A stretch of 60,742 bases of DNA, counting the filler, from Hausera hauseri (lineage: Eukaryota), in the NCBI GenBank assembly GCA_046269625.1. It is 12 parts of 12 records of this genome, joined end to end, with 100 filler letters (N's around TTAATTAATTAA, not from the genome) between each part and the next. Parts side by side here need not be neighbours in the genome. Positions count along the whole stretch, not along the records: positions 41,129 to 45,522 come from JBJURY010603444.1; 11 more parts are not named here. One strand, written 5' to 3'. The position numbers and the translations under genes were made by a program. Under the pieces are notes generated by a model. The model did no database searches, was not told the origin of the DNA, and saw nothing but the letters and a program-made list of their open reading frames with translations. Below are positions 3,017 to 54,410 of the stretch, piece by piece. Each line of letters starts with the position of its first letter. Within the stretch, counting starts at the first letter, position 1.

Positions 3017-3380
3017 GTGAGCAATTACAAACGATCAAATTCAGATTTAGCGGACAGACCAGAGGGCGGGGATTTTCCAACCCTACCCAAGCCGGGCGAC
3101 GAGGTGGACGGCGTGCATGCGAACGCGGCCAACATGGCGACTTACGCCACAATGGACATCTTCGCGAACCAATTGCTGCCCAACAAATTCAGGAAAGGCG
3201 ACGACGTAGAGAAGTTCATTAAAGGATGTGAAAAATTCTTTAAATATATGAACACTCCGGCGGCAAAGCGAGAAATCATGGTTGAATGTCTCTTGGAGGA
3301 AGATGCACTATAAAGATGCGAGGCAATAGATGCAATGATCACGGGATACCAAAACCGACTACGGAAGGCTTTCGCCCGAT
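3017..3380 (+). pseudogene. LTR-retrotransposon Gag N-terminal fragment
   Basis: PNKFRKGDDVEKFIKGCEKFF...LLEEDAL*...YQNRLRKAFA resembles a capsid N-terminal helix pattern. Has an internal stop and is truncated at the pPolB junction. Confidence 0.55.
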
Positions 3381-5300
3381 CCTCAGGGTTTATGATTGTC
3401 ACCATATTTTGAAATGGCCAATAAACGGATTTCCGCGCTGGGAACTATCCGTAATTCTGACTACGATGGAGAAATACCTGTCACTGTCTTCTCGTATAAA
3501 CCGGTTTAAAGTACAATTCCTTGATTTATTGCAATTTCTCAATGAATCTCTGGCAAAGCTAGTAAATGCCTTGCCAGATGTGCCGCTAACATTGACTCAG
3601 TTCCACGTACATATTTCGCGTAACAAAAGCATATTCCCATATGACTTTGCGACATCGTACGAGTGGCTCCAGACGACAAACGAATTACCACTGCAATGGC
3701 CCTGTATCACAGAAGAAGAATATCACAGAGCAAAGTCGTTTTGGGCTGAGCTCGGCTGCAGAAACCTCTTGGAGTACATGTTTCACTATCTGAAATTGGA
3801 TGTGTACCTGTTAGCCCATGTGTTTCAGACATTTCAAGCTAAGGCGTTGGCAGAAGATAGTCTGGAGCTCCTCAACTTTTACTCAATACCCGGAATGAGT
3901 TAGGCATCAGCTCTGGTGTCACTGGATAGGGATATTGAGCTATTGCAAGACCCGAAAATGTACCGAATGTTTGATGTTGGTATTCGTGGCGTCATGACAT
4001 TTGTCAACAATCATTACGTAATTAGTGATGATATTATATCACTGTTGTATATTGCCATTAATAACCTGTACGGCTGGGCGCTTTTGCAACCCTTGTCGTA
4101 CAGTTTATTCAAATGGGGAGTTGACAAAGAGGACCTGGACACAATACTGGAAAATCTGCCTAGAGCAGACACGGCAGAAAACAGCTCAATCGGGTACCTG
4201 ATGGAAGGTGATCTCGTGGTACCAGATGAACTGCATGACTTTCAGGATGAACTGCCGGTAGCACCAATTAGCCAATGTCCAACGGGCTCGAAGGTGAAGA
4301 AGCTGATTATGACGTATGAACATAAACAAAACTACATAGTTCATTGGAGTCTGTTGCAATTTTACATGCAGTTGGGTGTACGCGTCCTACAGCTGCGTCG
4401 CGCAATCCGATTTGCGTAGGCCCCGATATCTAAGCCGTATATTAGTCGGAATTCGGAAAAACGAGCTAAAGCTTGTACAAAGTTTGAAAAAGACTATTAC
4501 AAACTTAAAAATAATTCGCTCTACGGAAAATTAGTAGAAAATCTGGAAAAGCGGCTCAATGTACGCCTGTGCAATAACGAAAAGCGGTTGGTCACGTACA
4601 TGAGCAAGGTACCGTTCAGGCGATCAATGCACATTGTCGATGGATTGGTTGCCGTGCTTTTAAACAGGGAAGGAGTCGTACTGGACCGGCCAAGTTATAT
4701 AGGGCAAGTGGTATTGGATCTGAGCATGTTGCGGATATATAAACTGCAGTATCGCGATTTGGCACGATACCGGCAAATGTTTGGTGGTGGCGGATGCAGA
4801 ATCAGTATAATTGCCGGTGACACAGATAGTTATTCTTGGAACTGGCAAACGTCAATCGATAACAACTACTGCGGCAAATGATGAAAGACAGATTACTGGA
4901 CACATCCAATTACCCACAGAATCATCCATTGTACAGCAACGCCATCACAAACAAAATTGGCTGCTTCAAGGATGAAAGTGAAAGTCGGGTTCAGTATAGA
5001 GAATTGATATTTCTACTGCCAAAATATTAGTCTTTTAACTAACTGTGGACCAATAATGCGCGCCAAAGGAGTTAAGTTGGCCCAGACGGAAATAAGTCGC
5101 GGTGATTTTTGCTGTATTTATGAAGGAGGACACGGAGAACAAAAACAAAGGCTGTTGTGTCACAAACGATCATCCGATCGACTGAGCACCAGTTGTATAC
5201 GGTGACCAATACAAAAGTCGCTTTATCATGTAATGATGATAAGCGTAAGTGCGTGGGGCGAAATAAGAGTTGGACTTACGGACATTGCCCTTTGGAATAA
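3381..5300 (+). pseudogene. Polinton/Maverick protein-primed family B DNA polymerase (pPolB), decayed
   Basis: YDCHHIL (ExoII), FLDLLQFL, KSIFPYDF, YLKLDV (ExoIII), GIRG, INNLYGWA (motif A), KLKNNSLYGK (motif B), GDTDS (motif C), terminal DDKR...YGH. Several stops and frameshifts. Confidence 0.95.
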
Positions 5301-13981: not shown

Positions 13982-14842
13982 TCAATCAGAAATTGTGCAT
14001 TTGATGAAAATGACGTCATTTTTCATTGCATTTTGATTTGTCTGCAATTCTGTCCAACTGATGAATTGAGGATGTCCTAATGCATTATTTGCATGTGCAG
14101 TTGGTTTTTCATAAGAATCTGCAAATTCATTTTTACTATTTTCATAACTGAAATCAAATGATTTGTAATTGTCACCATTTTGTTGATTGACAATGGCCAA
14201 TTTGATTTTCTTCTTCATTGGCCACTGCAGTACATCATCAAATGGACCTTTACAAATGGCAAAAAATAATGACAAATGAGTTCCTTTGCCACCACCATTT
14301 CCATTGGGATCCAATTGCATTTTCATGCGGTATCCATTGCGATGAGTGAAAAAAGTCACTGTCGATAACTTCGTTGTTTCCTGCTGCTGCATTTTGTCGT
14401 TTATCAGTCATATTATCCACACGCCACACAAATTCACCACAATTTATCATTTCCTGCAGCAAAGTCATGTCGAATTTCATCAAATTTCCTCACCTGCGTC
14501 AGTCTCATTTTATCCAATCCATCCACGAATTTCTTCATCTCATTCTACAAAAACATCACAAACCAAACAAACCAGCAGCAGTTACCAACCTTATTTGCCA
14601 ATTTCAATTCATTCTAAAACGGCACAAATAAACAACTGCAAATTCAACAAATAAATTCCTGCCTGACTTTTCTGTAAATTTTCTTTCATTTCTGCATTTT
14701 CTTTCGTCAATTTAGTAACATCCGCTGTAGCAGATTCCTTGTAAAATGAACAAGTTCATCAAATTTTCATTTCCTTATGCACAACAGATAATTTCTCACC
14801 ATTTTCAAATTCCTCCATCTGTTGTTTCATTTCATTCTCCAT
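13982..14842 (-). CDS. TRAF-family coiled-coil + MATH protein, multi-exon, frameshifted as given
   Basis: GEFVWRV...GYRMKMQLDPNGNGGGKGTHLSLFF..KGPFDDVLQWP...LGHPQFI...NDVIFIKC is a TRAF MATH domain. Phase-0 introns at 14454-14493, 14545-14589, 14614-14662 (GC-AG) and 14738-14799. Confidence 0.9.
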
Positions 14843-20238: not shown

Positions 20239-20343
20239 TCTGCAGCTTCATCTAGTAATAATAAAATAACCTGTCCTCATATTATTTGTTTATAATCGTG
20301 TTACACGCGTATAAATATCTCTAGTATAAACACTGTTTCCATA

Positions 20344-20859
20344 ATGTTAGCTAATATCAATTATCGCGGACATGTTACCGAGTGTGACATTAACACACTA
20401 CCTTTTATTCAATGGAAGAAGAGGCAGTATGTCCTCAAGTGTCCATCGGATTTTACATGCATCGTATTTCAATCGGGAAAGTGTCGTATTATGAGTCGTT
20501 GCAAACCAATCACAGATGATAAACTACTACCATTCGGGATTATCATTGAAAAAATCCAATCAATAACGGTAACGACTCAGTTAGACTACCACCAAACAAT
20601 CAATTTGTACAAATTATTAATGACCGCTGCTGAATGTACATATGAACCCGAACTGTTTCTTGCACTGAGACTGACATCGTTTTGTCCACTCTGTGTCAGT
20701 GCGTTTACCAGTGGAAAAATTGTTGTTCTCGGTATTCGGACAGTGGACTATAAACCGATTATTAATCAAATTAAAAACCACATAAATGTTTCAGTGAATC
20801 AAAATAATGTACATTGCACAACAACAACAAACTATAAATACAATTCCCATGCCCATTGA
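20344..20859 (+). CDS. TATA-binding-protein (TBP)-like protein
   Basis: Two TBP half-repeats: ANINY..CIVFQSGKCRI and IQSITVT..INLYKL..YEPELFLAL..PLCVSAFTSGKIVVLG. Intact and intronless, with TATAAA motifs just upstream. Confidence 0.88.
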   Translation: MLANINYRGHVTECDINTLPFIQWKKRQYVLKCPSDFTCIVFQSGKCRIMSRCKPITDDKLLPFGIIIEKIQSITVTTQLDYHQTINLYKLLMTAAECTYEPELFLALRLTSFCPLCVSAFTSGKIVVLGIRTVDYKPIINQIKNHINVSVNQNNVHCTTTTNYKYNSHAH

Positions 20860-21117: not shown

Positions 21118-21459
21118 CGAAACTCAAAACCGTCGGCGTCGCGCCAAACAGATATTTTTACGAAACGAATTTTTCGCAAGTACGAAATGCATTTTCTGCA
21201 AAGGCCCCTACTGATTTCATTGAATGATCCCGTATCTTTATGTGCACCCAAGTACAACTATCGTGTAAAACGGCTTTCGGGTGAAAATTGGGATAATCCT
21301 TCTGATGCTCTACATTACATAAACGTTGTTGTAAAGTTAAACGAAACGACCGTGCAAAANNNNNNNNNNNNNNNNNNNNNNNNNNNNNNNNNNNNNNNNN
21401 NNNTTAATTAATTAANNNNNNNNNNNNNNNNNNNNNNNNNNNNNNNNNNNNNNNNNNNN

Positions 21460-21860
21460 TTAATGACATATCAGCATTTTCTAAAATCAACTTTATTCCA
21501 ATACACATTATATCCTCTTTAAGCACTTTGGAAAATTCGTGCATATAAGTCAAATGTTCCAACGCGGTCTTTCCAGTACTGTCTTTCACATTTACCAACT
21601 TCGGATTTAATCTCAAAAGTTTCTTCATTATAACGGAATTTTTTTGAAAAACAGCCCAATGAAGTGATGTGAAACCGTACTTTCTGTCAATTGCACAGCT
21701 TACGGTCGGATGTTTACTCAAAATGAATTCCGATATTTCCAATTTCTTACAACGAATGGATAACTGCAAGTTTGACTCTCTGTTTTCGGCTTCGAAATAT
21801 TCGGCTTTAAAAGCATTTGAAAGGCTTCTAATTTTCGTTCATTTACGGCAAAATTGAGAG
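21460..21860 (-). CDS. Ankyrin-repeat protein fragment
   Basis: YGFTSLHWAV...KKLL...VNVKDSTGKTALEH. Confidence 0.85.
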
Positions 21861-28903: not shown

Positions 28904-29026
28904 GGAATCTCCGACCGCGGACTCGCCTACACAACGTAATAAACTAGTCAAGTATTAAAGGTTCCGTGCGTTCGTGTTTTTTTTTTGTAACGACACGTGT
29001 GTGTTTTTCGTCGGCTTTCGGCGAAA

Positions 29027-29746
29027 ATGCTCTTGGTCGCAGCCTCAGTCGAATTTGCGGTCGTTTGTTGCGTGGCTCTACCAACGCCGGCTCCCGTGGT
29101 TCCGCAAACCACCGCCGCAACAATCTTCGCGACTCGAGAGTATGACGAGGCAGACAACAAACAGCTGACATCTACACCGGATCATACGATTGGCGATTTG
29201 TTAGATCGGTTAAATGTAACAACCGATCCGTTTACGCAAAGTTCGACTAACAAGCTCTACGATGACCAGATATCGTCAGATTCGGGTGGTCTCGCGGAAC
29301 CCGTAACAAAATTGACGATTAGGTGTCCGGATGAAAAAAAAGCAAGATTTGATGGTTTCACGTGGCTCTCACGCGACGAACCGAGTTACCGTTTGTATTA
29401 TATCAACCGACGGGGTACAGTGGTCCGCTACAGGAGCAGCGCCTCGCATCACGACAAGCTGAAAAACACATACGGTCTCACGCTCGCCGTAGACAACGCG
29501 TCGGCTCTTAATATAATAGGGAATAACTGTAATTACACGGGTTCATACGCGTGTCTAATGTACAACCCCACTAGACGCGAAACGTACACTTTTTATGTTA
29601 CAAACTGTACGGTCAAACCGACAACGACGCACGACGACGGTTTTACACACAATCGTATCGACACTTACGACGTGTTCTTGATTCTCTTTGTCTCGCTTTT
29701 AAGCGTGATCATCTGCTTTACTGCGTATCGCGTGTGTCGCATGTAA
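29027..29746 (+). CDS. Type I membrane glycoprotein with one Ig-like domain
   Basis: Signal peptide, Thr-rich stalk, LTIRC...FTW...ALNI..N.NYTGSYAC, N-glycosylation sequons, TM VFLILFVSLLSVIICFTAY and a very short tail. Confidence 0.8.
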   Translation: MLLVAASVEFAVVCCVALPTPAPVVPQTTAATIFATREYDEADNKQLTSTPDHTIGDLLDRLNVTTDPFTQSSTNKLYDDQISSDSGGLAEPVTKLTIRCPDEKKARFDGFTWLSRDEPSYRLYYINRRGTVVRYRSSASHHDKLKNTYGLTLAVDNASALNIIGNNCNYTGSYACLMYNPTRRETYTFYVTNCTVKPTTTHDDGFTHNRIDTYDVFLILFVSLLSVIICFTAYRVCRM

Positions 29747-30467: not shown

Positions 30468-31114
30468 TTAACAAACAAACACGACCATTAGGGTTAACGC
30501 CGTTACGACAACGGCAGAGTAAACCTCGGTGTTCCCGTTAGANNNNNNNNNNCGCGGAACTCATGTTCTTCGTTCCGCTGGCCCACGACGGCAGACCTGT
30601 AACACGCGTAGTATCCGTCGTGGTTACAGTTTCTGACGCGAATAACGAGAGACTTGTTTCTCGAGACGCTGTATCCTACGTTGTTTTTACTCTGCATTAT
30701 ATGTGCGTCCTGGTACACAGACACGACTCCGTTCGCGTCGACTCGGTACAACCCGGATTGCGTTTTCTGCAATACGCAGCACGACCCGGAGTGCGGTCTC
30801 CAGGGTGTACCCACATACCACGTGGTGGCACTGAAACGCTCGGGGTTGTGGTCGGGACAGTCTAATACCAGCGAGCCGACGTCCGGATCTGGACGGTTGG
30901 TTGTCCGACCCGTCGATACGTCCAACGTCGGCGACACCTTCGCGGGGACCCGCCGATCGGTGTAGATACCAGGTTGTCCGTATCCGTCCGCTAGTGAGAT
31001 GCTCGAATCGCGTTCGGGGTGCGGGGTCGTTGGCAGCACGAGTCCGCAATGAAGCGATGATAATGTCCAACATCCCAGCAGTAACCAACACAGCGTTGTC
31101 TCACGCGAGACCAT
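30468..31114 (-). CDS. Paralogous Ig-like glycoprotein with a hydrophobic C-terminus (contains a 10-N gap)
   Basis: Signal peptide and LVLDCPD...TTW...LYRV...SLVIRVRNCNHDGYYAC. After the gap another frame reads SNGNTEVYSAVVVTALTLMVVFVC*. Confidence 0.75.
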
Positions 31115-31627
31115 GTTGTCGCGTTCACCGAGATGTGTCTCGTTTACGGTTAAAAATGGGCTATATATATATATATATCGCAGCACATCTGACTGACGTT
31201 AAGCGCACCGACCGATCACGCACTTTTTATATCGCCCGACCGTGCAGCTTTTACCGGTTCCGACTAGGGGCCGAATGTATGAATTCAATAAAATACATCG
31301 ATCCAATCGTTTCTTTTTCTGTTTATTTATTTGTGTTTAAATGTATAACAGATCCCTCAAAGGGGACGCGTAGATGATGAGTTGTTATTGTGATAAACGT
31401 CGTGTACAGCCGCCTCGAGGAAATAAAAAAAAACCACGTTCGTCATGTCCAGTAACTTACCATTTGGGAGGACAGGGGTTGTTATTACCAATTGCGTTTT
31501 GCACAAATGACTCAAAAATAAACCCGTTCGTTGAAAAGTTAATGTGACTCTCACCGGATGCAGCACGCGACATTTGTGTACGAACACAGGCCTTAATAAA
31601 TGAAAAAAAAAGCACTAGATTCTTCGT

Positions 31628-31890
31628 AGGGACGCGTAAACAATAGACTTTATATATAAAAAAAATACAACGACGACACGCGTCGCGTAAACAGTAGACC
31701 CATAGCCGGGCGCCGTACGCGACGAAGGACCCGGCGACGCGTAAACGGTAGACCCATAGCCGGGCGCCGTACGCGACCACCGCGGGGACGCGTAAACAAA
31801 CAGGGCGCCACACGCGACGACCGCGGGGACGCGTAAACAATAGACTTTAAATAAAAACACAACGATGACACCCTTCGCGTAAACGGACCC
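31628..31890 (+). repeat. Direct-repeat array with six CGCGTAAAC cores
   Basis: Cores at 31633, 31684, 31738, 31789, 31830 and 31876. Confidence 0.92.
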
Positions 31891-32150
31891 TCGGCGCACC
31901 GGCGTACGTTCGGTTTTACATTTTTTTTTTGTTCCGACAGCGTGGACAGATTTTTTTTTTTTTTTTTCCCTCGACGANNNNNNNNNNNNNNNNNNNNNNN
32001 NNNNNNNNNNNNNNNNNNNNNTTAATTAATTAANNNNNNNNNNNNNNNNNNNNNNNNNNNNNNNNNNNNNNNNNNNNTCCTAAAACAAAGTATTGTTTGA
32101 AACTTGAACCAATTCTCTGTTTGCTGGTGGAATAACCCGATCTGTAGTTA

Positions 32151-33563
32151 TCAGGTTATTCCATCATTGATTCCATCTTGTGGTATCATCACCCTTAGTT
32201 CCCTCTCGGTGATTTTATGACGCTTAATACAACAGTTTTTGGCAATCAATCGACAAAACGCAATTAAGATTATGAGAGCAAATACTGACGTTCCAATAAT
32301 CGATGTTTATGACAACACTGTCCATTTAGTTAAATCTTCCATTTTGGCGGTAGTCGTAGTCTCATCTTCTGTTTTATCGGCGGTCAGTGGTTTTGTTACG
32401 ACAATCTCGTTCTAGGTTCGTATTGTGAACACTCTACCTTGTTTGTTCTCTGCACCCAATTCTATTATATAATCTGTTCTGGGTTTCAATCCGATACATT
32501 TGATTCCGTAACTGCCTTTTGGCAGTGTTACCTTCTGATTATCGTGTTATGTTCGGCAGCTTATTTCTACGTCGTATTTGAGTGTTTCCTCCACAATGAA
32601 CGTTATTTCGCATTCTTGTACCTGATATTTACAAGGATTATTTCTGGATCTTTGTGAGATAATTTGTTCGTTGTAGTGGTTTTGATGATTGCAGGAGTAG
32701 TAGACTTTGTTTTCGTATTTGTTGTCGTATCAAATGAATTCGACTTGATTGGATTTCTGAGTCGGTAGCTTCCTAAATAAATACTCGACTGGTTTGATCT
32801 GACTTCATATAAGTCTAACTGAATTCTATATTTATATTTCTGGGGTAACTTGCAACATTTCTTCGGTTGCTCCCCATTGATTTGGCAGTACTGTTGGCTG
32901 TAAGCTTGTATGTTTTCTTTCAGGAACCGGACTGAGATTACTCGACCGTTAATTCATTGTCCTTTTGTGTTTATTTGAACACAATTGTCCTTTGGATTTT
33001 CTATTATACTGGCTATATTTTTTAGCATCCGCTTTAGTGGGTCGATGGACTGGAGCATTTTGTTGGGTTTTATCCCATGGTGCTTGTTCCAAGCAGGGAT
33101 AACTAATTGAAATTGTGGTTTTATTTCGTAGATTTTAGAGTTTCGGTGAATGCAGTCGATAGGTAAGGTTATAGGTATGTCTGAAATCCATATTGCAACA
33201 TTGCGTTTGCTCTCCCGGCTCGAAATCACAATTTCTTGTTTCTTTTGTCATTATATGATCTAGGACAATTTGAAATATTCCAAAATTGTGGTGCGGTTTC
33301 TGTATTGTAAATCCAACGCATGTGGAGTTCGGCGAGTAATAATAAATTGTAACTGATTGTAACGACGTAATATTTTCTAGTCTTTTGATTTGTTCTATTG
33401 TCGCTATCTTTTCCATTTTATTAACCTCTGGTTTTGGTTCAATTTTCCATGCTCCGTATCCGTCGTGCCACTCTCTAGTTTTTGCTGTCGGCATGCAAGA
33501 AGCAATTAGCGATAAGGCTAAAACTATCAGCGCGTATAATATTGGCCTGGAGACAATTGACAA
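32151..33563 (-). pseudogene. Env-position FN3-like type I membrane protein, copy A
   Basis: Signal-like ILYALIVLALSLIASC, Cys-paired beta domains, GLKPRTDYIIELGAENKQG (FN3 signature), Thr-rich stalk, TM SIIGTSVFALIILIAFC and a KNCC tail. Confidence 0.85.
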
Positions 33564-36482
33564 ATCTTGTTTTCTCGTGATCTTAGATGGTAATGTTTAG
33601 CTGGTCTTATATCCGTTTTGACTACTCTTTGGACTGATACGACTTCCTCTTTTCCGTTTTTATTGACATAAACCGTAGTTGGTTTTGTACGAATGATTTC
33701 ATATGGTCCTCTTCCGGTACGTGTTAATCTTAAGGATGTACCTTTCTTCGCAACTGGGTAATGTATATAAACCCAATTTCCTTTTTTCAGATCATGAGGC
33801 TTAGTCTTTTTATCATATTGTTTTTCAAATTGTTCCCGGTGTTCGAGTGATAAGATTTTCGCAACTTCCCAACACTTTTGTAATCTTGTCTGTAAAACTT
33901 TCGCAAAGTTTTGCTCTAAATCTTCGAGATTCTTTTCGTACGGTGTCATATCTAGATTTGTCGGTAAGATTGCCTATCCTCCATACATCATAAAGAACGG
34001 TATAAATCCCGTTGCTGGATGTGGAGTAGTACTAATTGCGAACTGTGTTCCTTCTAGGAATTCGTCCCAATCTTTTTGGTCTTTTGCCACTACTGTTCAT
34101 AGTATGCGAATGACTGTTGCGTTCATCCGTTCAACCATTCCATTACATTGGGGATGATACGAGATTGTAGTTAAACGTTTGATTTCGAATATTTTTGTAA
34201 TTTTTTCAAATAATTCGCTTGTAAAGTTCCTTCCTCTGTCTGTTAGGACCTGTTCCGGTGGTCCGTATCTACAGATAATTTTTCTTACTACTGCATCGGC
34301 TAGTGTTTCCGCTTTTTGATCCAATAATGCTACCAGTTCGACAAAATGTGTCAATGGATCCGCGCATGTTATAATATATCTGTTGTTTTTGTGAGGTTTA
34401 GGTAAAGGTCCTACTATATCCATAGACATGGCCTGCATAAGTATATCTGGTACGTTTATTGGTTTTAGTTCTGCTACGTAGCCTTTCGTCTTCTTTTGTT
34501 TCGTTGCCCAAACTTCGCACGCTCCTACCCAATTCTTTACGTCAATATAGATACTTGGTCAGTAGTATTTATTCAATATTCTTTGCAATGTCTTCTTCCA
34601 AGACATATGTCCGGTTAAATACGAATCATGTTCGGCCATGAGTACCTCGGTGCGCAATTCTTTCGGAATAACTATTAATCTTCGTCCCTTTCGTTCATAA
34701 TACAGGATATTATCCTGGTTTGACGCGTGATATTTATGTCCGTTTTTCTGCAGGTGCCTTTTCAGTTGTCATCCTTTGGTCATTTCGCCGTTTTGTGCGA
34801 AATTAACAATTTGCTAAATAACTTTATCTTTGGCTTGCTGGGCTGTAATTTTAATTGTCTTATCCATTATTAGAGTTCGTTGTCGTTCGATCAGTTGTTC
34901 AAGTTGTGGCAATTTTGCTATAGTAATTGCGCTCGTTTTTGTCTTAAGCCTTTATAATGCGTCTTCGCCGACATGTTTATTTCCAGGTTTGTATTGGAAT
35001 TCAATGTTATATCGTGAGATTTCCTCAATCCAACGGTTTAATCTACATGTTGGATTATTAGCTCGTCCCTTCAATGTCGTGACTGCTTTGTGGTCGGTCA
35101 CTATTATAATCCTTTGCCCGCAGACATAGACATTAAAGTGTCGTAGTGCTTCCTTTACGGCTAACGTTTCTAATTCTGTAACAGAATAGTTTCCTCGGCC
35201 TTTTTAAGGAACGTCCACCATAAGCAATCGTGTGCTCTAATTCTTCATCTTCTCTTTTCTGCGCTAATTCGTATCCAATGCCTTCTTTGCTGGCATCTGT
35301 CTTGATTATGAAGGGTAAGTTAAAACCTGGATATCGTAAAACGGGTTCACTTGTTAATATCTTCTTCATCTCATCAAAAGCTTTATGTTCAACATCCGTT
35401 CATTTCCATTTAATTCCTTTATTAGGTAAGCGATATAAGGATGATTAATTTTTAAATTATTTGGTACGTAAGTTGCGTAATATCCGAATAATCCTAGCCA
35501 GTGTCTTAACTCTTTTTTATTCTGTGGTTCCATGCAATCTGATATTTTATTCAATAACATTTTATCTGCTTTCGATCCTCCTTCTCCAACTATATGGCCA
35601 AGTTAGGATACTGCATTCTGAGCCCATCTGCATTTCTTCGGATTCAACTTCAATCCGGCTTGTTCCAGTCTCATTAATGTGTGTTTGATATCCTTTAAGT
35701 GTTCCTTTTTGGTCCTTGACGCTATCGTTACGTCGTCTAAGTACGCAAAAGCATGATCCAGACCAATTAGCATTTTATTCATCATTCTCCTAAATGTGGC
35801 TGGTCCAGTAGTAATACCGAACCCCATGACATTAAATTCATAAACATCATCGTGTGTTTTAAATGCCCTCTTATATCGGTCTTCGTCCTCTATTTCCACT
35901 TGCCAATATCCGTATCTTAAGTCCAGAGTGGTAAACCATTTCGCCCTGAGAGTCGGCCTGAAGCCTCTTTGACCGACGGTAGTGGGAAGGAATCCTTCAT
36001 CATAAGACTATTCAAGGCTGCGTAATCAATACAAAATCGATGTTTCGTGGTACCTTTCTTCTTAACCATGAGGATTGGTGAATATCAAGATCTATAGCTG
36101 GGCCTAATTATATCTGCCTTAAGCATTTGTTCGACTTCTTTTGTTATTTCGGGCCTTAATGAATGAGACGGAGGGTACCATTTTGGCATCTTCTAGTCTT
36201 CTAAATCTATTTCCTCGTTTGACCCTGGCTTTTTCTTGAGTGGAATAGTTAGTTTTAATGCTTTCGCTCTACGGATATCTTCTTCGCCCTTAGCGATAAT
36301 CGATTTATATCGGCATAACAATTCGTATAATCGACAATAAGACTGAGGTGAAAACTTAGTTTCGACATGGGGCGAAAATTCGGCATACTTATAAGGCCTT
36401 TCTTCAATCGTTATTGACGATACTCTATACGTGTATCCTAAAGTAGTATAAGCATGGAGCCTGACAGGAGTTTGCGCGTTAT
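33527..36482 (-). mobile_element. Ty3/Gypsy pol (RT-RNase H-integrase), decayed, copy A
   Basis: FCIDY, GYWQV, YLDD, KTDASKEGIG, TDH, SMDIVGP, TDRGRNF, NGMVER and GPY in Gypsy order. Confidence 0.97.
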
Positions 36483-37133: not shown

Positions 37134-40100
37134 CTAATTTTTGTTTGTTTGTCTGTCCGTCTTTCTGACCTGACGTTCTGCGGTTCCAGTCGTAAATTTG
37201 TCATCCTCGATACGATCGTCAATTTCTTTCTGGTATAGGATTTCCATACGATTAATGAGGTAGACTTTAATTTCGTTTTTATATTCTCCATTTGTCTCTG
37301 CTAAAATAGAAATCGTGGCGAATTTTTTAAGGGGATTTGGAACCCCGTTGTAATCAAAAAATGTTGTTCTAAAGAGAACCGTTAACATTCCCAATTTGAT
37401 CAGCTGCTTTAGATCTGTCAACTCTTCTTTCTTTAGTAACTCAGCCTCTTCTTCAGCTTTTCGACGTTGCAATTTTACTTCTGTCTGAATTTTACGAAAC
37501 CTTTCTGCCACTTCTTTAGCTTTTCGACGGTTGTTGGAATTGGACCTTGAACCATAGTATTGATTTGACGACGTTATTTGTTTCTGATAACTTTTCAAAC
37601 TAGAACTTCTGGTTATACTCTCTTTTTGGGGACTCGACGATTTTTGTTGCCAGAGTAAATTGGTCATTTTATTCATCAACATGATCGTATCGACCCTACT
37701 CGACTGTGACACATTATTAACATCGGTAATTGTTTCGTCAGTTGCTGCCTTTCGGGACATTCTGTTAAGCATTTGTGAAAATTTCGAATGTAAATTTTCC
37801 TTATCCGCATGACCATAATTATCGTCATGTACTAATTCAGATGCTAATTCATGTACTAAGTCTCCGTCCAACTAACCAATTCCAAATTTCTTTTTCAATT
37901 TGGCTAATGTTGCTGCATGTAGTTTCTTTCGTTTTTCAATATAGCTTTTATCGTCGTTATCATCATCATCGTCTGGTACGTCACTGTTCGCTAGTCGTTT
38001 GTCTGATCCAGTTCGATACAAGTAACAAGTAATGTTCTTCGGTGAACTCTGTGAATTTCGATTTTTATCTGTCTTTGATATTCTTCTGGTTCGATGATTT
38101 GTCTTTTTGTTGTTTGTCTGTGAACTCAGAAGTAGCATGATTAATGTTTTTGATCGGTTCAACATTTCGATGAGATAAATACCAAATGCTTATACTGATT
38201 GAGTCGCATTTTGGGGTAACATTGGTCAATGAGGTAAATGTTGGAGTTGATGACTGTTGACGATGAGTATCCCTTTCGTCATATGATCGGGAACTTAATG
38301 TGTGATGCTGTGTCATTAATTTGTTAGGACAAATACGGTCGTCTTTTAATACCTTTAGTTGGACCATCATCTGATTTCAATACAGTTAAATTGCTCCCAT
38401 TTTGGTTGCAGAATTGGTTCTTGTTGTTGATCGTTCATAAATAATTTGTCTTCCAACTTCTCTTTTGCTTGATCATATAATCTGAGAATATCTCTCACTG
38501 TTGCATTACTACCTAATACTTGTACAACTGTCATTTCAAGCTGAAGTAGCTTTTCTTGTTCGTCGCTGAGTTCAATTTTCTCCTTTGTTTTGAGCATTTG
38601 AAAATGAATCAATAATGTAGTTATTTCTTCTTTCTTTTCATTCATCAAATTTAATTTGTCTGTCATCATTTCATTTTTGATTCAATCCATTTCACTACTG
38701 ATGTCCTCGACCCACTTGTTCTTTTAATACATTTTCAATTACATCTCTTTTACTCTCCAAACGAATTTCTACTTCAGTTTTCTTATTTCCTTTCCTCAAT
38801 CTCTGTTTATACATTTTCTCCACTTCTTCATTGAAATAATTTTCAATACTGTTATTTATTTCATTCTTTTTTGAAGCTAAAATTTCTTCTAATTTTCGTC
38901 CGTTTCAATCGCTCAACAGCCAAACTGTTTCCAACGGAAATACGATTTTTACTAAATTGTCTCAAGATTTCACTTCGATTATCAACGGGTAAAGTTTTTT
39001 GCATGTTTATTACATTATCAAGAACATCGCTTTGTGCATCTAAAAGATAATTTTCTTCTCTCTGCTGATCATCAATATCTGATTTGATTTCCTGTTTAGT
39101 TTTCATCAACCTTTGCTGCAATTCATATTCCTGGGACTTTTCATCTTGCAAAAGGTTCATATAAACATGAATGGATTGGCAAGGGGATTTCCCAATTTCT
39201 TTAGGGTCATACATAGAAAAATGTCGTTTATCAAAATCAGATCCGCTAAACGCTGTTTCCAATGTGTAACTATTGTTAATTTTAAATTGACTCCACATTA
39301 TTACACGGCCTGTCGACAATTCACTCTTCTGAACTTGAAATTGACGTCCAGTAAAAGAAAATGCCAATGGATTCTGCTTCTGCATTATCCGAGAAAACAG
39401 TTGATCTTTTATAAAGGAAGAAATCGTTTCCAAATTAATGACCGGATTCAGTTCCGTAACGTCCTCGGCATTCTGATATTGTGAGTAATTTCCGACAATT
39501 ACTCTATCTGGATTTAGCATTGACACGATTTTGAAAATAATCCTTTTGCGTAATCCCTTCGCAAAGGCACAATCATTGATTAAATACTGAATAAGACCCT
39601 TCATCATCCAACTGGAATTTGTTTCTGGATACTCTTGCGGTAATTACTGCTCCAAATTTTTTGTAATTCGGAACATCTTCACCGGTTACTGTAAGAACGA
39701 AACAGCCGTTGCAGATATTTGTTTCACAAAGAACATCTTGATTCATGATTGAGGAGTTGTTACTGGAAAGGAAAAAATTGAGATCATTCTTAAGGTCTGT
39801 AAAATTATATGGGTAACAATTTGCCAGATAACATATATCATAAGGAGAGGGAAACTCTATTTGAAACTCCGGTTGATAGTATGACGTTTTTCTGTTCAAT
39901 AAGGAACACTGTAACTTTGTCACATTATAAAAGTACCTTATATGATGTCCAATTCGAAACCAACCTTTGTTTTCTTTGTTGGCACAATGTTCGGAATACA
40001 AAAGCATTCTCATTCCTTCCATATACAGACTATTTGGCTTTAACAAGTTGATAATGATCAATTTGTACATTACATTCTTCAGCATATTTTGAATCCGAAA

Positions 40101-41028
40101 ATAAAAACATTGAGTATGTCTGTTCGTGTACATATTCCGTAATACTAACTCATATTTGATCTGTCTTATACGTCTCGCTTGACGCAAGTTACTGGATTCA
40201 AATCGTGACTCAAACACCAGACTAGGACAATCATTTTCTGGTTGACTAAACAATGCTGTTGTACGTGGGTTTGTTTTTGAGTCATAAACAATTTGCATGT
40301 TTCCATATCGCTGTGAATGAATGATTGTTGATGGGTGCTTAATTTCTTTCTCTGTCCATCGACGGATGTATAATGGGCTCCTCCTGATTACTAAAGAATC
40401 TTTTATGAGTTGGAGATGGATGTAGCGGGCTACTATTTTTAGGCCAAAATAAATCATGTTTATCTCGTACTATGCCATATTTATCTTTATACTGTCCATT
40501 TGGCAGAACTTCAAATTTGCTACCGTCAGCTAGTTTTCCATTTTTCAGTGCCTCATTGAAGCCATTCTTCGTAAATGAGTTGAACAGCAACTATTTTTCT
40601 TTCTGACTTAATGAACCGAAATTCTGCATGACATCGCAACCTGTTTTTGAAAAACTTAATTCTCAAAGTGGTTGCTCTTCATCATATTTGTAGCGTTTGA
40701 ATATAATTCCCGCACTGGCTGGCGATTTCGGTTCATAATGATTTCTTGACCAGCATTCAAACCCGTTCGTTCCAAGTTCCGAATATCGATCGCCGTCCAT
40801 CTGTATGAAGGGGATTTCTCTTCAAATTTATCATCGTTGTTGTTAAGTTGGTAGCCGATAACTTAATTCGGTCCCGTTCATTGAAATCAACACGGGCATT
40901 TAAATCCGTGTGTTTCATGCTCTGTTTTTCCCTTGCAATGCTTCTTCTTCTTGTCGTATTCTATCGCCTAGAGGTATATTCAAAACTTCTCGAACTCGAT
41001 GAGTAATTTCATTTTCAAGTTGCATTTT
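37134..41028 (-). pseudogene. Intronless cytosolic carboxypeptidase (CCP2/3, AGBL2/3, Nna1-like) pseudogene
   Basis: FESRFESSNL, YELVL, HTQCFYF, CYLANCYPY, ITARV, ETNSSWMMKG, MLNPD.VIVGNY, TGRV, NSYTLE. Many frameshifts; assignment of the coiled-coil tail below 38860 is less certain. Confidence 0.88.
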
Positions 41029-41173
41029 NNNNNNNNNNNNNNNNNNNNNNNNNNNNNNNNNNNNNNNNNNNNTTAATTAATTAANNNNNNNNNNNNNNNN
41101 NNNNNNNNNNNNNNNNNNNNNNNNNNNNAAACCAATTCTTTGTTTGATGACAGAATAACCTGATCTGTAATTG

Positions 41174-42579
41174 TCAGGTTATTTTATCATATGGGTCTAC
41201 AGGGTACTCTAATTCCCTTAGTTCCCATTCTAAGTTTTTATGACACTTAGAACAAGAGTTTTTGGTGACTAGCCGAAAAATCGCAATTAATATAATGAGA
41301 ACAAATTCTGACAATACCGTGATAGATACGATTGGTAGTGTAGTTAGTCCCATCGTTGCTTGTGTGGTGACTGGGGTTGTGATCTGTTCATCTATATCCT
41401 CATATATATGCGATTCTGCACGAATCTCATCTAAAGTATGCAGTGTAGCGGACTGATTTTGCTTATTCTCTGCATACACTTGTACTATATATTCGGTTTG
41501 TGCTTTTAATAAATTGCACTCTGTTTCAAAAGTATTTTTAAATAGCGTCACAACTTGATTATTATACGTTGTCCGTCAACTTATGTATATGTTGTAATTT
41601 TGTTTCTATTCCACGAAGAACACAATCTTATACCGATATGCCGAATATTTATTATGGATACTACCTAATTCTCTTTTAGGCACAGTGACCGACGTAACGG
41701 TTGACGTAATGATACTAATTTGAGTAGCTGGTCTTCTAGTGGTTGCCTCTACTGTAATTTTCCTAATTCTATTTCCTGGATAGTAAGTTCTAAATGGTAT
41801 ACTTGATTTATTCGGCCTTACTTCATATAGATCGAATCTTATGTTTAATTCTTGGTTTACGGGTATTTTACAGCATGGGTTTTGCACGCCTTCTTGAATA
41901 GAAAAATATTTTATTTTCGGAGTCGGTCCAACTGTTGCTTCAAACGTGATACTAATTTCCTGACTAAAACTTACTCTTGTTCTAGCGTGTACTTGAATGC
42001 ATTGTTTATCCTTATTCATAGAGATTCTCTGGATATTTTCGTCTAATATTCTTATATCCCGGTCAGTAGATCGTAGTATTTCATTCAGTTTTACTCCATG
42101 ATGTCTGCTCCATGCAGGAATAACTAATTGAGAACGTGGCTTTGTTTCAATATAAACTTCGGATGAATCTGGTAAGTATAAACGATAGGTGAGGTTATAC
42201 GTTTGTCCAAAATCTATGTCGCAGCACTGCATATTTTCTTCAAGCTCAAAATCACAATTTTTCGTAGCTTTTGTGTTTAAGTCAAATAAGACAATTTGAA
42301 ACCTTCCAAAATCGTGATGCCGTTTCCAAGTCTTAAATCCAACGCATACGGAGTTTGGCGAATAATAATGGATTGTCATTGATTGTAATAATTTGGTGTC
42401 TTCTTGTTTTTCAACTTCTTCGGCTGTTGGCTTCTTTTCCGTTTTTCATCCACTCTTCCGAATTCCGTATACATCTCCCAACGTAGATTCATCGTGCCAC
42501 CATTGCGCTTGTATTCGTGGGATGTAGGAGGCAATTAACGATAATAATAAGACTATCTGAACATACGATATTGGTCTGG
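41174..42579 (-). pseudogene. Env-position FN3-like type I membrane protein, copy B, in frame with integrase
   Basis: IVLLLSLIAS signal-like helix, YYSPNSVCVGF...CC...TYNLTYRL, LKAQTEYIVQVYAENK and TM LPIVSITVLSEFVLIILIAIF. Confidence 0.88.
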
Positions 42580-45522
42580 CAATTATTGAGGAAGTCTTTA
42601 TTTCTCGTGAGCGTAATTTGTTACGTTTATTGGGCCGTATCTCTGTCTTAACAACTCTTTGTACTGATATGACTTCTTCCTTTCAATTTTTGTTAATATA
42701 TACTGTAGTTGGCGTAACCTTCGTAACTTTGTGCGGTCCTCTGCCTGTACGAGTAAATTTTAGTGAATTACCCTCTTTAGCGACTGGGTAATGCACATAA
42801 ACCCAATTTCCTTGCTCTATATCATGCAGTTTCGCTTTCTTATCATATTGCTTCTTAAATTGCTCTTGATATTTTTGAGGTAGTTCTTTACAGATTTCTC
42901 AACACTTCTGCAACCGCGTTTGTAACACTTCTGCAAAATTATGTTATAAATCTTCACTATTAACTGTGTATGGCGTCAATCCTAAGTCCGTGGGCAACAC
43001 GGCTTCACGTCCATACATCATAAAAAATGGCATAAATCACATTGCTGGATGTGGCGTGGTTTTAATTGCAAATTGAGTTCCTTCTAAAAATTCGTCCCAA
43101 TCTTTTTGATCTTTCGCTACTACTGTTGATAATATACGTATGACGGCATCATTCATCAGTTCGACCATTCCTTTACACACAGGATGATATGCAATGGTCG
43201 TTAATCGTTCGATTTCAAATATTTTGGAAATCTTCTTAAAAAGTTCCCTTGTAAAATTTCTTCCTCGATCTGTGAGTATCTGGTCTGGAGGTCCGTATCG
43301 ACAAATAATTCTTCTTACAACTGCTTTCGCAAAGGTTTCGGCTTTCTGATCTACCAATGGTATCAATTCGACAAAATGAGTTAGGCGGTCGATGCATGTT
43401 AAGATATACTTACTGTTCTTATGAGTCATAGGAAGAGGTCCTACGATATCCATCGACATGGCCTGCATGGGTCCATCGGGTACGTCGATTGGTTTTAACT
43501 CGACCATGTAGTTTTTTGTCTTTTTCTGTTTAGTTGCGCACACTTTACAGGCATTTATCCAATTTTTCACATCAATATAAATACTGGGCCAAAAGTATTT
43601 ATTCATTATTCTTTCTAATGTCTTCTTCCAGGACATATGTCCGGCTAAATACGAATCATGTTCTGACATCAATACTTCGGTTCATAAACCCTTTGGGATA
43701 ACTATCAGCTTCTTTCCTTTTCGTTCGTAATGTAAAATGTCTCCTTTATTTCCGTCGTTTAAGACGCAGTATTTGTGTCCGTGTCTGTGTAAATGTTTCT
43801 TTAACTGTCGCCCTCTTGGTATGACATCCTTTTTAGCAAATTCTATATTCTGCTGGATAATCTTATCCTTTCTTTGTTCTGTTGAAATTTTAATGGCCTT
43901 ATCTATCGTTAACGCGCGTTGACGGTCTACTATTTCCTCAAGTTTACTTTTCTTCATTACTGTGATTGCGTTTGTTTTAGTCTTTAATCTCGATAGTGCA
44001 TCGACGTCTACATGTTTGTCCCCTGGCTTATACTGAAACTCAATTTTATATCTGGAGATTTCTTCTATCCATCTGTTTAATTGACACGTCGGGTTATTTG
44101 TTCGATCCTTTAAAGTTGTAACGGCCTTGTAGTCAGTGAAAATTATAATTTTCTGACCGTAAACATAAACGTTGAAATGACACAGTGATTCTTTTTGCAG
44201 CTAGAGTTTCCAGTTCGGTAACAAAATAGTTTTTCTTGGCTTTCTTCAAGGAACGTCCTCCATAAGCAATTGAGTGTTCTAATTCTTCGTTTTCTCTTTT
44301 TTGCGCTAGTTCATAACCGATGCCTTCCTTACTGGCGTCTGTCTTGATTATAAACGGTAAGCTAAAATCTGGATATCGCAAAACGGGTTCGCTTGTTAAT
44401 ATCTTCTTCAGCTCATCAAAATCTTTCTGCTCCACGTCTGTCCATTTCCATTTAATCCCTTTTTAAGCACAAAATATTGAGATGCATTAATTTTTGAATT
44501 ATCTAGTACGTAGGTTGCGTAATATCCGCATAATTCTAGCCAGTGTCTTAACTCTTTCTGATTTTGTGGCTCCATGCAATCCGATATTTTGTTCAATAAC
44601 GACTTATCTGGTTTCGATCCTCATTCTTCAACTATATGACCTAGGTAGGACATGCAATTTTGAGCCTCTTTGCATTTCTTCGGATTTAACTTCAATACGG
44701 CTTGTTTCAATCTCATCAGCGTGTGTTCAATATCCTTTAAGTGTTCTTCTTTTGTTCTCGATGCTATCATCACGTCATCTAATTACGCAAAGGCATGATC
44801 CAATCCCATTAACATTTTATTCATCATTCTGGTAAATATGGCTTGTCCGGTAGTAATACCGAACGGCATGACGTTGAATTCATTAACACAGTCGTGTGTC
44901 TTGAATGCCGTTTTATAGCGGTCCTCGTCCTCAGTCTCCACTTGCCAATATCCGGATTGTAAGTCCAGAGTAGTAAACCATTTTGCTCCTGAGAGTCTAT
45001 CCAGGGCCTTTTTTACTGATGGTAATGGAAAAAAATTCTTCATCATAAGATTATTTAGAGCTCTGTAATCAATACAAAATCGGTGCTTCGTAGTGCGTTT
45101 TTTTTAACCATAAGGATAGGCGAGTACTAGGATTTGTAACCGGGCCTAATTATATCGGCCTTAAGCATTCGTTTGACTTCCTTTGTTATCTCGGGTCTTA
45201 GCGAATGTGGTGGAGGATAACATTTCGGCATCTTCTGATCCTCTAGATCTATTTCTTCATTTGAATCAGGTTTTTTCTTAAGTGGAATAGTCAGTTTTAA
45301 CGCTTCCGCCCTACCAATGTCTTCTTCATCCTTAGCAATAATCGATTTATAGCGGCATAATAATTCATAAAATCGACACTAAGATACTAGGGAGAATTTA
45401 ATTTCAACATGAGGCGGAAATTCGGCATACTTATAAGGCTTTTCTTCAAAAGTTATTGAGGATACTCTATACGTATCTCCTAGAGTAGTGTAAGCATGAA
45501 GTTTTATAGGACTTGGTGCATT
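42580..45522 (-). mobile_element. Ty3/Gypsy pol, decayed, copy B (same family as copy A)
   Basis: TLDLQSGYWQV, MPFG, KTDASKEGIG, H..AGH..C..C zinc finger, SMDIVGP and TDRGRNF, collinear with copy A. Confidence 0.97.
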
Positions 45523-50426: not shown

Positions 50427-51464
50427 TCAAATGCTTCTTTGGATGTCGGAAGAGATAGTAGTCACTGGGCACGAGGTCAGGATTATAAGGAGGGTGCTTA
50501 AGCCAACCTGATCAATTCTGGCCTGAGAAATGCCCGTTGTGTAAAGAAGGGCATTGCCATGCAAAAACCACGGCTGCGTTCTTGCGTGCCTTCTCTTCTT
50601 CTTGGATGTTGCTACAAGGTCGCTGTAGTACGCGGCGTTGATCCTGACTGATTTGTTAGCGAAGCCCATATGCACAACGCCTTTACTGCCACAGAAAATG
50701 GAAAACATGAGCATCCGCCGCTGGGAAGTCCCTGATATCAACTTGATGGACGGCTTCTCCCCGGATAATTTCCACTCAGCAGAGTCCCTCTTGAACTCAG
50801 AGATATACGTGGATAGTGGGGTCTCATCCTCTGTGAGAATATTCCACAGGAACTTGTCCCCATGCTGCTTCCAAATGCTAATGTTGTTTTCACAGGCGAC
50901 GCGACGCGACGATTTTCCATCATTTCCCCACTGAGGAAGAGAGGCACGAATCGTGAACACAATTTTTTCACCCCTAAAGCCGACAGTCGTGCATGTACAC
51001 TTCCCACGCTGATGTTGACAGCTGTGAATAAGGCGTGAATGCTGATTCTTCGCTCCTCCTGAACCATTTTCAGCAATTCTTCGTCCACATTGTCCGAAAT
51101 TTCTTGCGGTCGGCCCCATCTGTCATAATCAAAAACTGATGTGCGACCACCTCTGAATGCATTTACCCAGTTCTTCACAGTTGATAAAGATGGAGCATCC
51201 TTCTGATAAGTAGACTGCAAAAACTCGTGAATTTCGCTGCTGATTTTCCTTTGCAAAACGAAGAATTTTATCAAGCTTCGATATTCTATCGGTGGTATCA
51301 TGACTTTGACAATTTTTAAAACTCTTGCGTTACAGAGCAATGACAGAGCAAAACAAACTTAATTTTCTTCACCTATACTAATACAATTACTTGTAAATTA
51401 AAAATGACTAAGTTACTATTTTTAATTCTACCTTAGGCCAGGGACTTATTGAGCGTAACGCGTA
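50427..51464 (-). mobile_element. Mariner (irritans/Himar-like) transposon, frameshifted, with 5' TIR
   Basis: YRSLIKF...APSLSTVKNW..F..GR...GRP, RFVPLFL, TEDET. TIR at ~51435-51462 reads CGCGTTACGCTCAATAAGTCCCTGGCCT next to TA. Confidence 0.92.
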
Positions 51465-51685: not shown

Positions 51686-51906
51686 ATGGCGTCTGTAAAT
51701 TAACGCCAGTGGGGAAATAAAAAATTTAAATTTATAACATGCCTTTCATTAAATTCAGTTGCAATGACTTATGCTGGTGTAATTTAGAATGTTTGTATAA
51801 ACTTTCTATTTTACAGCAACGTAACTTACTGCTTCATTATTTAATGAAGTTAACGTATAAATTTAAAATTTTTATTTTCCCGCTGGCGTTAATTTACAGA
51901 CACCAT
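51686..51906. mobile_element. MITE with ~50-nt terminal inverted repeats
   Basis: ATGGCGTCTGTAAATTAACGCCAG... mirrored by ...CTGGCGTTAATTTACAGACACCAT. Confidence 0.8.
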
Positions 51907-51910
51907 ATAG

Positions 51911-53625
51911 CAGTGGTTCTTAAACTTTTCGGCCCGCGGACCACTTTACTGAAATAAAAAGTACGGCGATCCACCAAAGCTTAAAATCACTTCGTACCGT
52001 AAATTTCAAATTTAAATTGTCGCATTTGTTTTATTACGACTTACAGCTAAATGTACTTTTGTGATACTAGTATAGTAAAAGGTCTACATACAATTACAAA
52101 TTTAATAAAGATCGTTATTAATTAAAATGTTACTGAGATGAATGTAGTTGTTTTTGATGAGATATTAAACTGATAATATGTGGATCAATATTGGAGAGTT
52201 TCAATCTCATGTCAGATTTCACGTTCAATCGGCTTCTCTTATTTTTTTCAGTCCCACGTGTTGAAAATCCAATTTCACAACAGTAAGTTGTTGGAAATCT
52301 CAATAAATGCTCCACAGCGATGTCAGCAAGTACATCCTACTCAGATCTTACATGAAGTCAAAAGTCTGTCAAGGATTTCTCAGCCAATAACATTTTCAAA
52401 GAACCATAAGAAGCAAGTTCCACAAGACTATCAACATCCCTTGATCAGAGTTTGATACCGACTGTTTTAGCTGAATTCATGTTTGCAAATGGGTTTCTGA
52501 CCCTATCACACTTTTCCTCTGGATCTGGAAAATAAATTTTGAATTATTCATGCAGACCCTGTAGGTGTGATTTGAGGTTTGTAACAATCTGTTCATCAAT
52601 TTCCTGTGGAGACGTCACGAGAAAATCACCGAGGGTTTGGAATGAGTCAAATTTTCGGTGATTGGGGAGGTCACTCCACAGTTCTAATTTTATACCAAAT
52701 TCTTTACTTTGTCTTGAACGTTAAAGATTGTGACATCTCTGCCCTGCAGGGCAATGTTAAGTCCATTTAGACTACTAAAAATATGAGCCAGGTACGCCAA
52801 CTGAGCAAGCCATTAAAAGTTATACATGCAAACCTACAAGTGGAAAGTTCGATAGTCACAGTCGAGTAAATAAATTTTAACCTCCTCGCACCATTGAAAC
52901 AGACAAGTGAGCACTTTTCCACGCGATAACCAACAAACTTCTGCACGAAAAAGACGTTTGGTGTGTTCACTTCCCATCTATTCGCATAAAGCTTTAAAAA
53001 TCCGCGTGTTCAAAGGGTGACCTTAGATAAAGTTTATATTTTTACTGATTCATCTATTACTGTCGTAAGATCGACGGGAATTTTTCCTCTCCAGCTGCAT
53101 TGGTCGGTACAGACTTATAGAAGAGAAAGGCATCATGAACAGCGCATAAATATTCATATCTGACACATGACACGAGGTTTGCTTCGTTCGTTATGTCAGT
53201 AGCTTCATCAAGTTGAAGTGCGAAGTACTGACTTTAATGTAGTCGTAATAACAACTGACATTCCATACTTTCAGTCATGGCTTTTATTCCACATTTTACG
53301 GTATCATTTGAAAAAGAACGTTGTTGATAGCATTTGTCGCATTTCGTCAAACATTATTTTTGTCATTAATTTGGCACAATTTTATCAAATTCTCTGCAAT
53401 AGTGTGGTTTATTCCGATTTTTGCAAACAATAGTGAAACTCTGTAGAATGACTCTGTAGCCTTAGTGTTTTTATCGCAAGAAGCAAAAAGGTGCAACATT
53501 CCGTTCTTTTGTTGTAACTCTGCGATTATTCTCAAAATAAATTAGAGGTTTATCAACAAATTGACAGTGCTTGAATTAAAAATGACTCTTCAGTTTGGAT
53601 AGTTTCATTGCTTCATTGGCCATAT
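51911..53625 (-). mobile_element. hAT (Charlie/Buster-type) transposon remnant
   Basis: TIR CAGTGGTTCTTAAACTTTT; FPTTYCCEIGFS...KRSRL...DMRLKLS dimerisation domain; AMKLSKLKSH; QLDEATD. Confidence 0.92.
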
Positions 53626-54410
53626 TTTCATAATATCTTTGGATGGCATGGAATGTATGCTGAGAAGATCTCGTAGCATCTTCCATTGTGGACTGATGCA
53701 CATACATTCCTCAATAATCAAACCAACAACCCCTCCAATTCCAATGAGTTTGGAAAGACAACATTGTAAGCAAGCCCGAGAAACCGGAAGACTGAAATGG
53801 GATAGCATGGAATTAGAAATGCAACCTGGAAAAATAATCAGAGCGTATAAGATAGTAGCCGGAAGGCTAGATATGCATAACGGGCACTGTAGTGGAACGG
53901 AATACGATACCGGAAAAGGATTGGAAGATACGTAGTAGTAGTAGACTTTTACGAATCACAGATGCGAGTCCAAAAAGTAATGTTCCATAGCGTCACTAAT
54001 TTATATACTGAGAATCAAAAATGTCACATGCAAGACAAAACTTGTGTCTTCAGAAGTTCTATCGTCATATAGGAACCACCTACCGGGAAAGCCTGTAATT
54101 TTATTAAGATCAAAGAATTGAAATTTAACGAAACTACGGGGAAACGATACGTAGATAAATCCGACATCAGTTCAAGAGCACGTGAAGACGTATCAGAACA
54201 TCATACACCTACGATATTAATGTCTGACCAACATGGATTGAAAATCATAAAAAAGGAAATGATTTCACGATGTGAAGTGGTAATGTTTACAACCAACTAC
54301 GAATAGTTCTNNNNNNNNNNNNNNNNNNNNNNNNNNNNNNNNNNNNNNNNNNNNTTAATTAATTAANNNNNNNNNNNNNNNNNNNNNNNNNNNNNNNNNN
54401 NNNNNNNNNN

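Follow-up and report, generated by a model that had tools for sequence, protein, structure and literature searches.

In two decayed copies of a Ty3/gypsy retroelement from Hausera hauseri, the UGA codon that closes the last ORF is contained in a predicted hairpin; in copy B, the model has 17–18 bp, with the stop in the 5′ arm and a viral read-through motif as the loop. The reading favoured here, to which about even confidence is attached, is that of a structured 3′ cis-element situated where the polyprotein truly ends. The UGA would close a Ty3/gypsy frame in which integrase is continued by a predicted FN3-type membrane protein. The hairpin would likely be where a cis-acting 3′ RNA element begins, immediately ahead of the 3′ LTR, and not the gate to a further gene. 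The element itself would be an errantivirus-like retroelement with GAG-ENV-POL layout, made as one polyprotein in the order Gag, gB fusogen, PR, RT, RH, IN, internal signal, FN3 ectodomain, TM and tail; translation would normally end at YxxIT. Base pairing would keep the sequence near and beyond the stop constant, probably together with a protein that attaches to the stem-loop of the genomic RNA and has a role in packaging, export or stability. The loop would leave the stop somewhat leaky as a side effect.

The window (the whole stretch of DNA analysed, 60,742 nucleotides) consists of 12 contigs of 4.0–6.4 kb each, put together with the artificial joint N44-TTAATTAATTAA-N44. Two of these contigs, copy A (32078–36482) and copy B (41129–45522), hold the same element and are 75% identical over 3.4 kb. 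Their limits are homologous, with starts at most 2 nt and ends at most 30 nt apart; each contig starts within pol and ends 45–73 nt past the stop. On the minus strand, both copies carry the Pfam domains RVT_1, RT_RNaseH, Integrase_H2C2 and rve in this order, followed by the membrane ORF. The succession of RT, RNase H and integrase is that of Ty3/gypsy elements, and the pol of an intact relative, P0129, also matches the pol of A and B by tblastn. Both copies are dead. In-frame stops number seven per 832 codons in A and seven per 835 in B, which by the arithmetic of this analysis corresponds to about 5–8% random change per copy; an alternative genetic code was rejected, since the residues found opposite these stops in the other copy vary (G, W, S, E and more). 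The element family is very high-copy, with 15,201 and 1,162 records in contigs from two sequencing runs. Summed depth in the bin with the stop is the highest in run X1 and the second highest in X2, but contig depth is a measure that cannot rank gene parts, and these ranks do not count as evidence here. Inside the protease-RT linker, both copies have an identical starting point (36482 and 45522), where a shared repeat or a deletion derivative may break the assembly. The features are listed in Table 1.

Table 1. Positions of the features discussed, counted along the window.
Feature	Position	Strand	Basis
Decayed Ty3/gypsy pol, copy B (RT, RNase H, integrase)	42593..45522	-	Pfam, tblastn
Decayed Ty3/gypsy pol, copy A	33563..36482	-	Pfam, tblastn
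Membrane module, copy B, in frame with integrase, 3 in-frame stops	41177..42592	-	Sequence, fold of relative P0002
Membrane module, copy A, in pieces (frameshifts, stops)	32154..33560	-	Sequence
C-terminal Y-D-K-I-T, YxxPhi-like, also hairpin 5′ arm, copy B	41177..41191	-	Comparison with P0002, P0003
UGA closing pol-FN3-TM ORF, copy B	41174..41176	-	Sequence; P0002, P0003 share I-T end
CAA UUA CAG, type I read-through context and predicted hairpin loop, copy B	41165..41173	-	TMV comparison
15 open codons after stop, cut by contig end, copy B	41129..41173	-	Sequence
UGA then immediate second stop UAA, copy A	32148..32153	-	Sequence
Predicted hairpin 1, copy B, 17–18 bp, stop in 5′ arm	41147..41190	-	Folding
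Predicted hairpin 1, copy A, 14 bp unbroken plus 2	32125..32166	-	Folding
Predicted hairpin 2, whole only in copy A; 5′ arm conserved in B	32083..32122	-	Folding
Broken gB-type (Monjiviricetes_fusion) env fragment, other contig, at contig end downstream of mariner	53603..54310	+	tblastn, Pfam

The membrane module of copy B comprises a signal-like segment, three domains with a predicted FN3 fold, a Thr-rich stalk, a TM segment (about 41276–41332) and a tail ending in Y-D-K-I-T, which is taken here to be a YxxPhi-like sorting motif. A full HMMER scan with this ORF gave four matches. Two of them, P0002 and P0003, are true relatives; P0004 and P0005 were dropped as generic Ig/FN3 proteins. P0002 is intact (479 aa), and both relatives are 36% identical to B and 45% identical to each other. 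They end in YDRIT and YGRIT, respectively, where B has YDKIT; this shared Y-x-x-I-T end marks the stop as a conserved terminus and argues for the cis-element reading. The structural model of P0002 shows three β-sandwich domains, a stalk and a TM helix (mean pLDDT 55, domains 60–75), and resembles FN3 domains most closely (Z 10.2, rmsd 2.0 over 76 residues; Foldseek E 7e-10). For the module of a further relative, P0007, two FN3 domains are modelled (pLDDT 71; Z 9.7, rmsd 2.2 over 85 residues). Both models have the seven-strand β-sandwich of solved FN3 domains, and a viral fusogen fold of class I, II or III is not what the modelling suggests for the membrane ORF. Pfam fn3 reaches an E-value of only about 0.1; the FN3 lead from the ESM Atlas stays under 0.9 for B, and the P0007 module has no usable match there. 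Word-seeded protein searches with the B membrane ORF gave no match at 268–854 or 855–2,440 aa, nor did a PDB sequence search. DNA scans found no relative in viral contigs or prokaryote genomes, and a scan of metagenome contigs gave one match, to an unrelated integrase.

The integrase search returned 180 proteins, of which 120 were listed. In a quick integrase tree of A, B and the best 60 of 114 well-covered matches, a set that does not include the published GAG-ENV-POL elements, A and B group with P0006, P0128, P0007, P0129, P0008 and P0009 (SH-aLRT 93, below 95). In four of these six (P0007, P0129, P0008 and P0009), the integrase frame leads on without a break into a signal-like segment, repeats that carry Cys, a Thr-rich stalk, a TM segment and a tail, so the in-frame junction of B appears to be the normal layout of the clade. 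The P0007 module resembles the repeats in the window weakly (hhalign probability 35%), P0128 has an Ig domain behind integrase, and P0006 ends after integrase. A gB-type env lies upstream of pol in P0129, P0128 and P0006 (three of six); P0007, P0008 and P0009 were called from the protease region on, and their env part is not covered. P0129 is a single gag-env-pol-FN3-TM ORF that takes up 11,208 of 11,515 nt and leaves 307 nt for both flanks. A long, unexplained stretch separates its Gag from its Env.

These layouts bear on the idea, put forward in the original prediction, that a missing fusogen might be encoded past the stop. As a gB-type env precedes pol in the nearest intact relatives (within the best 60 of 114 in the tree), the fusogen is likely, as judged from sequence, not missing from the element at all, and this idea is unlikely to hold. 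Together with the P0129 ORF, which nearly fills its contig, the upstream env argues for the cis-element reading; against that reading count the quick tree with support below 95, the identity of only 36–40% to the relatives, and the fact that no gB env is seen on the contigs of A and B themselves. In the window, the gag and env of A and B lie off their contigs, and the broken env fragment (tblastn E 3e-12; Pfam PF24664 E 4e-9, above cut-off) sits on a separate one.

A GAG-ENV-POL layout has been reported in errantiviruses of nematodes, bryozoans and flatworms (PMC13524379). Like the HSV/gB-type errantiviruses described there for Nematoda, Bryozoa and Platyhelminthes, the present family has a Ty3/gypsy pol, which in the nearest intact relatives is preceded by a gB-type env, and is high-copy, here in an apparently animal genome. 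It differs from them in the additional FN3 (or Ig) type I membrane module in frame behind integrase, which P0129 encodes within one ORF of 3,735 aa. Neither ‘fibronectin’ nor ‘immunoglobulin’ is mentioned in the main text of PMC13524379, and literature searches found no description of an integrase-fused FN3 membrane module. This module is the more novel part of the element, ahead of the read-through context.

Hairpin strength was ranked over 60-nt windows across each 4.4 kb copy, with 20 shuffles per window. In both copies the first rank goes to the window of hairpin 1, among 290 in A (z −5.9) and 289 in B (z −5.2); the two positions are homologous, and this top rank speaks for the cis-element reading. 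A fold as good was reached by none of 200 shuffles for A and by one of 200 for B. The sequence left 3′ of the stop folds no better than its shuffles (65 of 200 as good in B, 40 of 200 in A), and hairpin 2 of A is weaker and not significant alone, with 40 of 200 shuffles folding as well. Among the 18 pairs of hairpin 1, 11 are invariant, one is changed on both sides, two are kept by G-U and four are broken in one copy. Covariation between the two sequences is not significant (241 of 500 shuffles reach the observed level), and this counts against the cis-element, as do the four broken pairs and the frame that stays open to both contig ends. So does the lack of an Rfam family at threshold for the hairpin region, where the mir-4878 match has 24 of 100 bits. 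A hammerhead ribozyme was dismissed by eye, as the GAAA core of this motif is absent. A second strong predicted hairpin (z −5.0) lies in the tail-coding region of B (41204–41263, minus strand); A folds differently there.

Retroviruses carry 3′ RNA elements between env and LTR, an example being the CTE of Mason-Pfizer monkey virus. The predicted element would have in common with this CTE a structured, nucleotide-conserved RNA from the end of the last ORF; it differs in that neither a sequence comparison nor Rfam gives a match. Should the hairpin be all that functions here, the result would be a useful but ordinary 3′ cis-element. Neither LTR nor PPT is seen in the A and B contigs, a further point against the cis-element reading. 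The break of both contigs 45–73 nt past the stop weakly fits a following repeat such as an LTR. The A contig breaks in a T-tract followed by four purines.

The sequences around the stop are as originally quoted and lie on the minus strand. Copy B reads ATA ACC (41182–41177), TGA, then CAA TTA CAG ATC AGG TTA TTC; copy A reads ATA ACC (32159–32154), TGA (32153–32151), then TAA CTA CAG ATC GGG TTA TTC. The extra A assumed for copy B does not exist: from the stop on, B aligns to A without gaps and reads QLQIRLFCHQTKNWF in frame to the contig end. Over the 45 nt past the stop, A and B are 80% identical. The C-terminal half of the ORF averages 57%, and none of its 132 windows reaches 80%. This stretch had been interpreted as conserved coding sequence, which the substitutions do not bear out. 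The nine differences in 15 codons fall 5/1/3 at codon positions 1/2/3. In frame, pN/pS amounts to 0.39, compared with 0.21 for the +1 frame and 0.26 for one frame of the opposite strand; as the in-frame value is not the lowest, the data cannot show coding past the stop. Conservation begins 5′ of the stop and takes in third positions, and this pattern, with the lack of a frame-specific coding signal, favours a cis-element. Around the stop the copies differ at 17% of positions, about what decay alone at 5–8% per copy would give, whereas integrase synonymous sites differ at 71%. The modelled hairpin likely accounts for the conserved letters near the stop.

This relatively simple reading is complicated by the read-through motif, which in copy B is exact and in register with the stop, something that a pairing constraint leaves unexplained. 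The main rival, considered possible but held with less than even confidence, is a programmed leaky stop: a selected type I context that adds a short tail to the FN3 protein. Some 5–15% of ribosomes would read UGA as an amino acid and go on to make an aromatic-rich extension of at least 15–24 aa behind YxxI, giving two tail isoforms with different sorting; the hairpin would have a separate role or a gating one. In copy B, the stop is followed by CARYYA, as type I read-through demands, and the first 11 nt past the stop, including the conserved +9 G, are identical to the post-stop sequence of TMV, CAA UUA CAG AU (PMC13517186). The motif is active without downstream structure in plants, mammals and yeast (PMC13517186), and in reporters assayed in mammalian cells, read-through at UGA-CAAUUA reached 10.1% and about 15% (PMC3159437, PMC4132726), so a leaky stop is plausible for B. 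It also speaks for this rival that the T/C difference between the copies at +4 falls where CARYYA tolerates either letter.

The motif is intact in B, but in A a second stop, UAA, directly follows the UGA, so that only one of two copies retains it; with seven stops in 832 codons, this second stop could itself be decay. The nucleotide at −1 is C in B, not the A conserved by tobamoviruses as xxA-UAG-CAA-UUA-xxG (PMC3159437). Compared with the type I signal UAG-CAR-YYA of tobamoviruses, benyviruses and pomoviruses (PMC3159437, PMC13517186, PMC4132726), B shares CAA UUA CAG with the +9 G; it has UGA for UAG and C at −1, its stop lies in a predicted stem with the motif as the loop, and no downstream ORF is seen within the contig, so that B is a candidate site. 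Type I read-through is described as absent from animal viruses and, in the text of a 2026 review, is listed for plant viruses only (PMC13517186); this counts against the leaky stop, as does the lack of a frame-specific coding signal.

Chance must also be considered. In the window, CARYYA follows 12 of 6,555 stop triplets (0.18%), and four of these 6,555 (0.06%) have the +9 G as well; among the 92 ORF-ending stops it occurs once, at the stop of copy B. In a scan of many windows, chance matches are expected, at about 0.2 per window among ORF-ending stops. The frames remain open to the contig ends, for 15 codons in B and, after the second stop at +1, for 23 in A, so that the frame does not close at once in B. 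Since a run of 15 open codons comes after 38% of the stops in the window, and one of 23 after 24%, the open frame alone is weak evidence. The standing of the leaky stop, well short of even, combines a prior, guessed at about 0.5%, that such a stop is programmed for read-through with a chance rate of 0.06–0.3%, and is raised a little by the open frames and lowered by the second stop of A. The original call of a read-through signal is thus upheld as far as a true type I context in B and a plausibly leaky stop go; the conservation past the stop, on which it also relied, fits the hairpin at least as well. A read-through product, if there is any, would probably be a short tail only.

In types II and III, the structure-stimulated kinds of read-through, a stable structure starts about 8–13 nt after the stop; hairpin 1 contains the stop. 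With an entry channel of 11–12 nt (PMC13517186), a ribosome on the stop would cover the loop and melt the stem, so hairpin 1 would not act as a classical downstream stimulator. There is also a host-gene case to set beside the leaky stop. Myelin P0 is a type I membrane protein, the topology in which read-through would lengthen the cytoplasmic tail, as it would here. P0 has a read-through isoform (PMC4132726); it is a host gene with a shown product, whereas the product in the retroelement is hypothetical.

A gB-type fusogen often requires an attachment partner. This leads to a combined proposal, held to be rather unlikely as a whole: a new clade of gB-type GAG-ENV-POL elements with a captured FN3/Ig attachment partner behind integrase, together with a hairpin-loop type I signal that sets the ratio of two tail isoforms, and which would be the first type I site in an animal retroelement. 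The fusion of integrase, FN3 and TM in gB-carrying elements suggests a way in which their target cells might be chosen. Were the stop programmed to leak, a signal class listed for plant viruses only (PMC13517186) would be present in an animal retroelement, in an unusual layout with the stop in the stem and the motif in the loop, and would control a membrane tail, not a polymerase.

In a further alternative, judged improbable, the inverted repeat would act as DNA, such as an enhancer or protein site at or just before the start of the 3′ LTR, and the read-through context would be pure chance. A near-perfect inverted repeat does occur where both contigs break, and the same palindrome pattern is found at five loci in viral contigs, none with a retroelement gene, which are unrelated and were taken as chance. 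However, the non-Watson–Crick pairs that are kept are G-U on the sense RNA, as in an RNA stem, and no conserved PPT-TG junction precedes the stop region in A or B.

SIRE1 reportedly uses CARYYA at its pol/env stop. This Sirevirus shares with the present element an in-frame stop in an LTR retroelement, adjoining an env-like ORF (PMC2194720). In SIRE1, a Ty1/copia element of plants, that stop separates pol from the env-like ORF (PMC2194720); in copies A and B, which are Ty3/gypsy, the membrane ORF is fused to pol, and it is the membrane ORF that the stop closes. The least probable reading, read-through into a long ORF that would encode a fusogen or assembly domain and run off both contigs, can draw on this precedent, on the motif and on frames that are indeed open to both contig ends as originally claimed, as well as on an FN3 module that is itself not a fusogen, but is made very unlikely by the upstream fusogen of the nearest intact relatives (best 60 of 114 in the tree), the 307 nt that P0129 leaves outside its ORF, the gB-type env fragment within the window, and the 23 post-stop residues of A, which are not hydrophobic (best 15-residue mean −0.3) and thus begin no signal or TM segment that would take a domain out of the cytoplasm.

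Several other features of the window deserve mention. The contig at 54411–60742 holds another gypsy element, with a 705-nt direct repeat of integrase-end sequence (93% identical) at both contig ends, which suggests tandem copies. A decayed mariner/Mos1-type transposase (50427–51358, minus strand) is followed by a 222-nt palindromic stretch at about 51690–51900. The contig at 26400–31977 is GC-rich (48%), CpG-rich and virus-like, and its ORFs have no Pfam matches; two of them, at 28991–29746 (plus) and 30503–31198 (minus), resemble small Ig-type membrane proteins, and GC-rich direct repeats lie at about 31650–31900. An intron-less, broken gene like that of a cytosolic carboxypeptidase (38861–40469, minus; Pfam Pepdidase_M14_N E 1.5e-4, just under cut-off) is possibly a retrocopy. 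At 464–1126 (minus) and 3286–4881 (plus), a Dcp1-like ORF shares its contig with broken ORFs that by eye look like a Polinton-type DNA polymerase. Finally, the window contains a TRAF-type MATH domain (13982–14407, minus), a TBP-like ORF adjoining an integrase fragment (20296–20859, plus) and an ankyrin-repeat ORF (21404–21838, minus).
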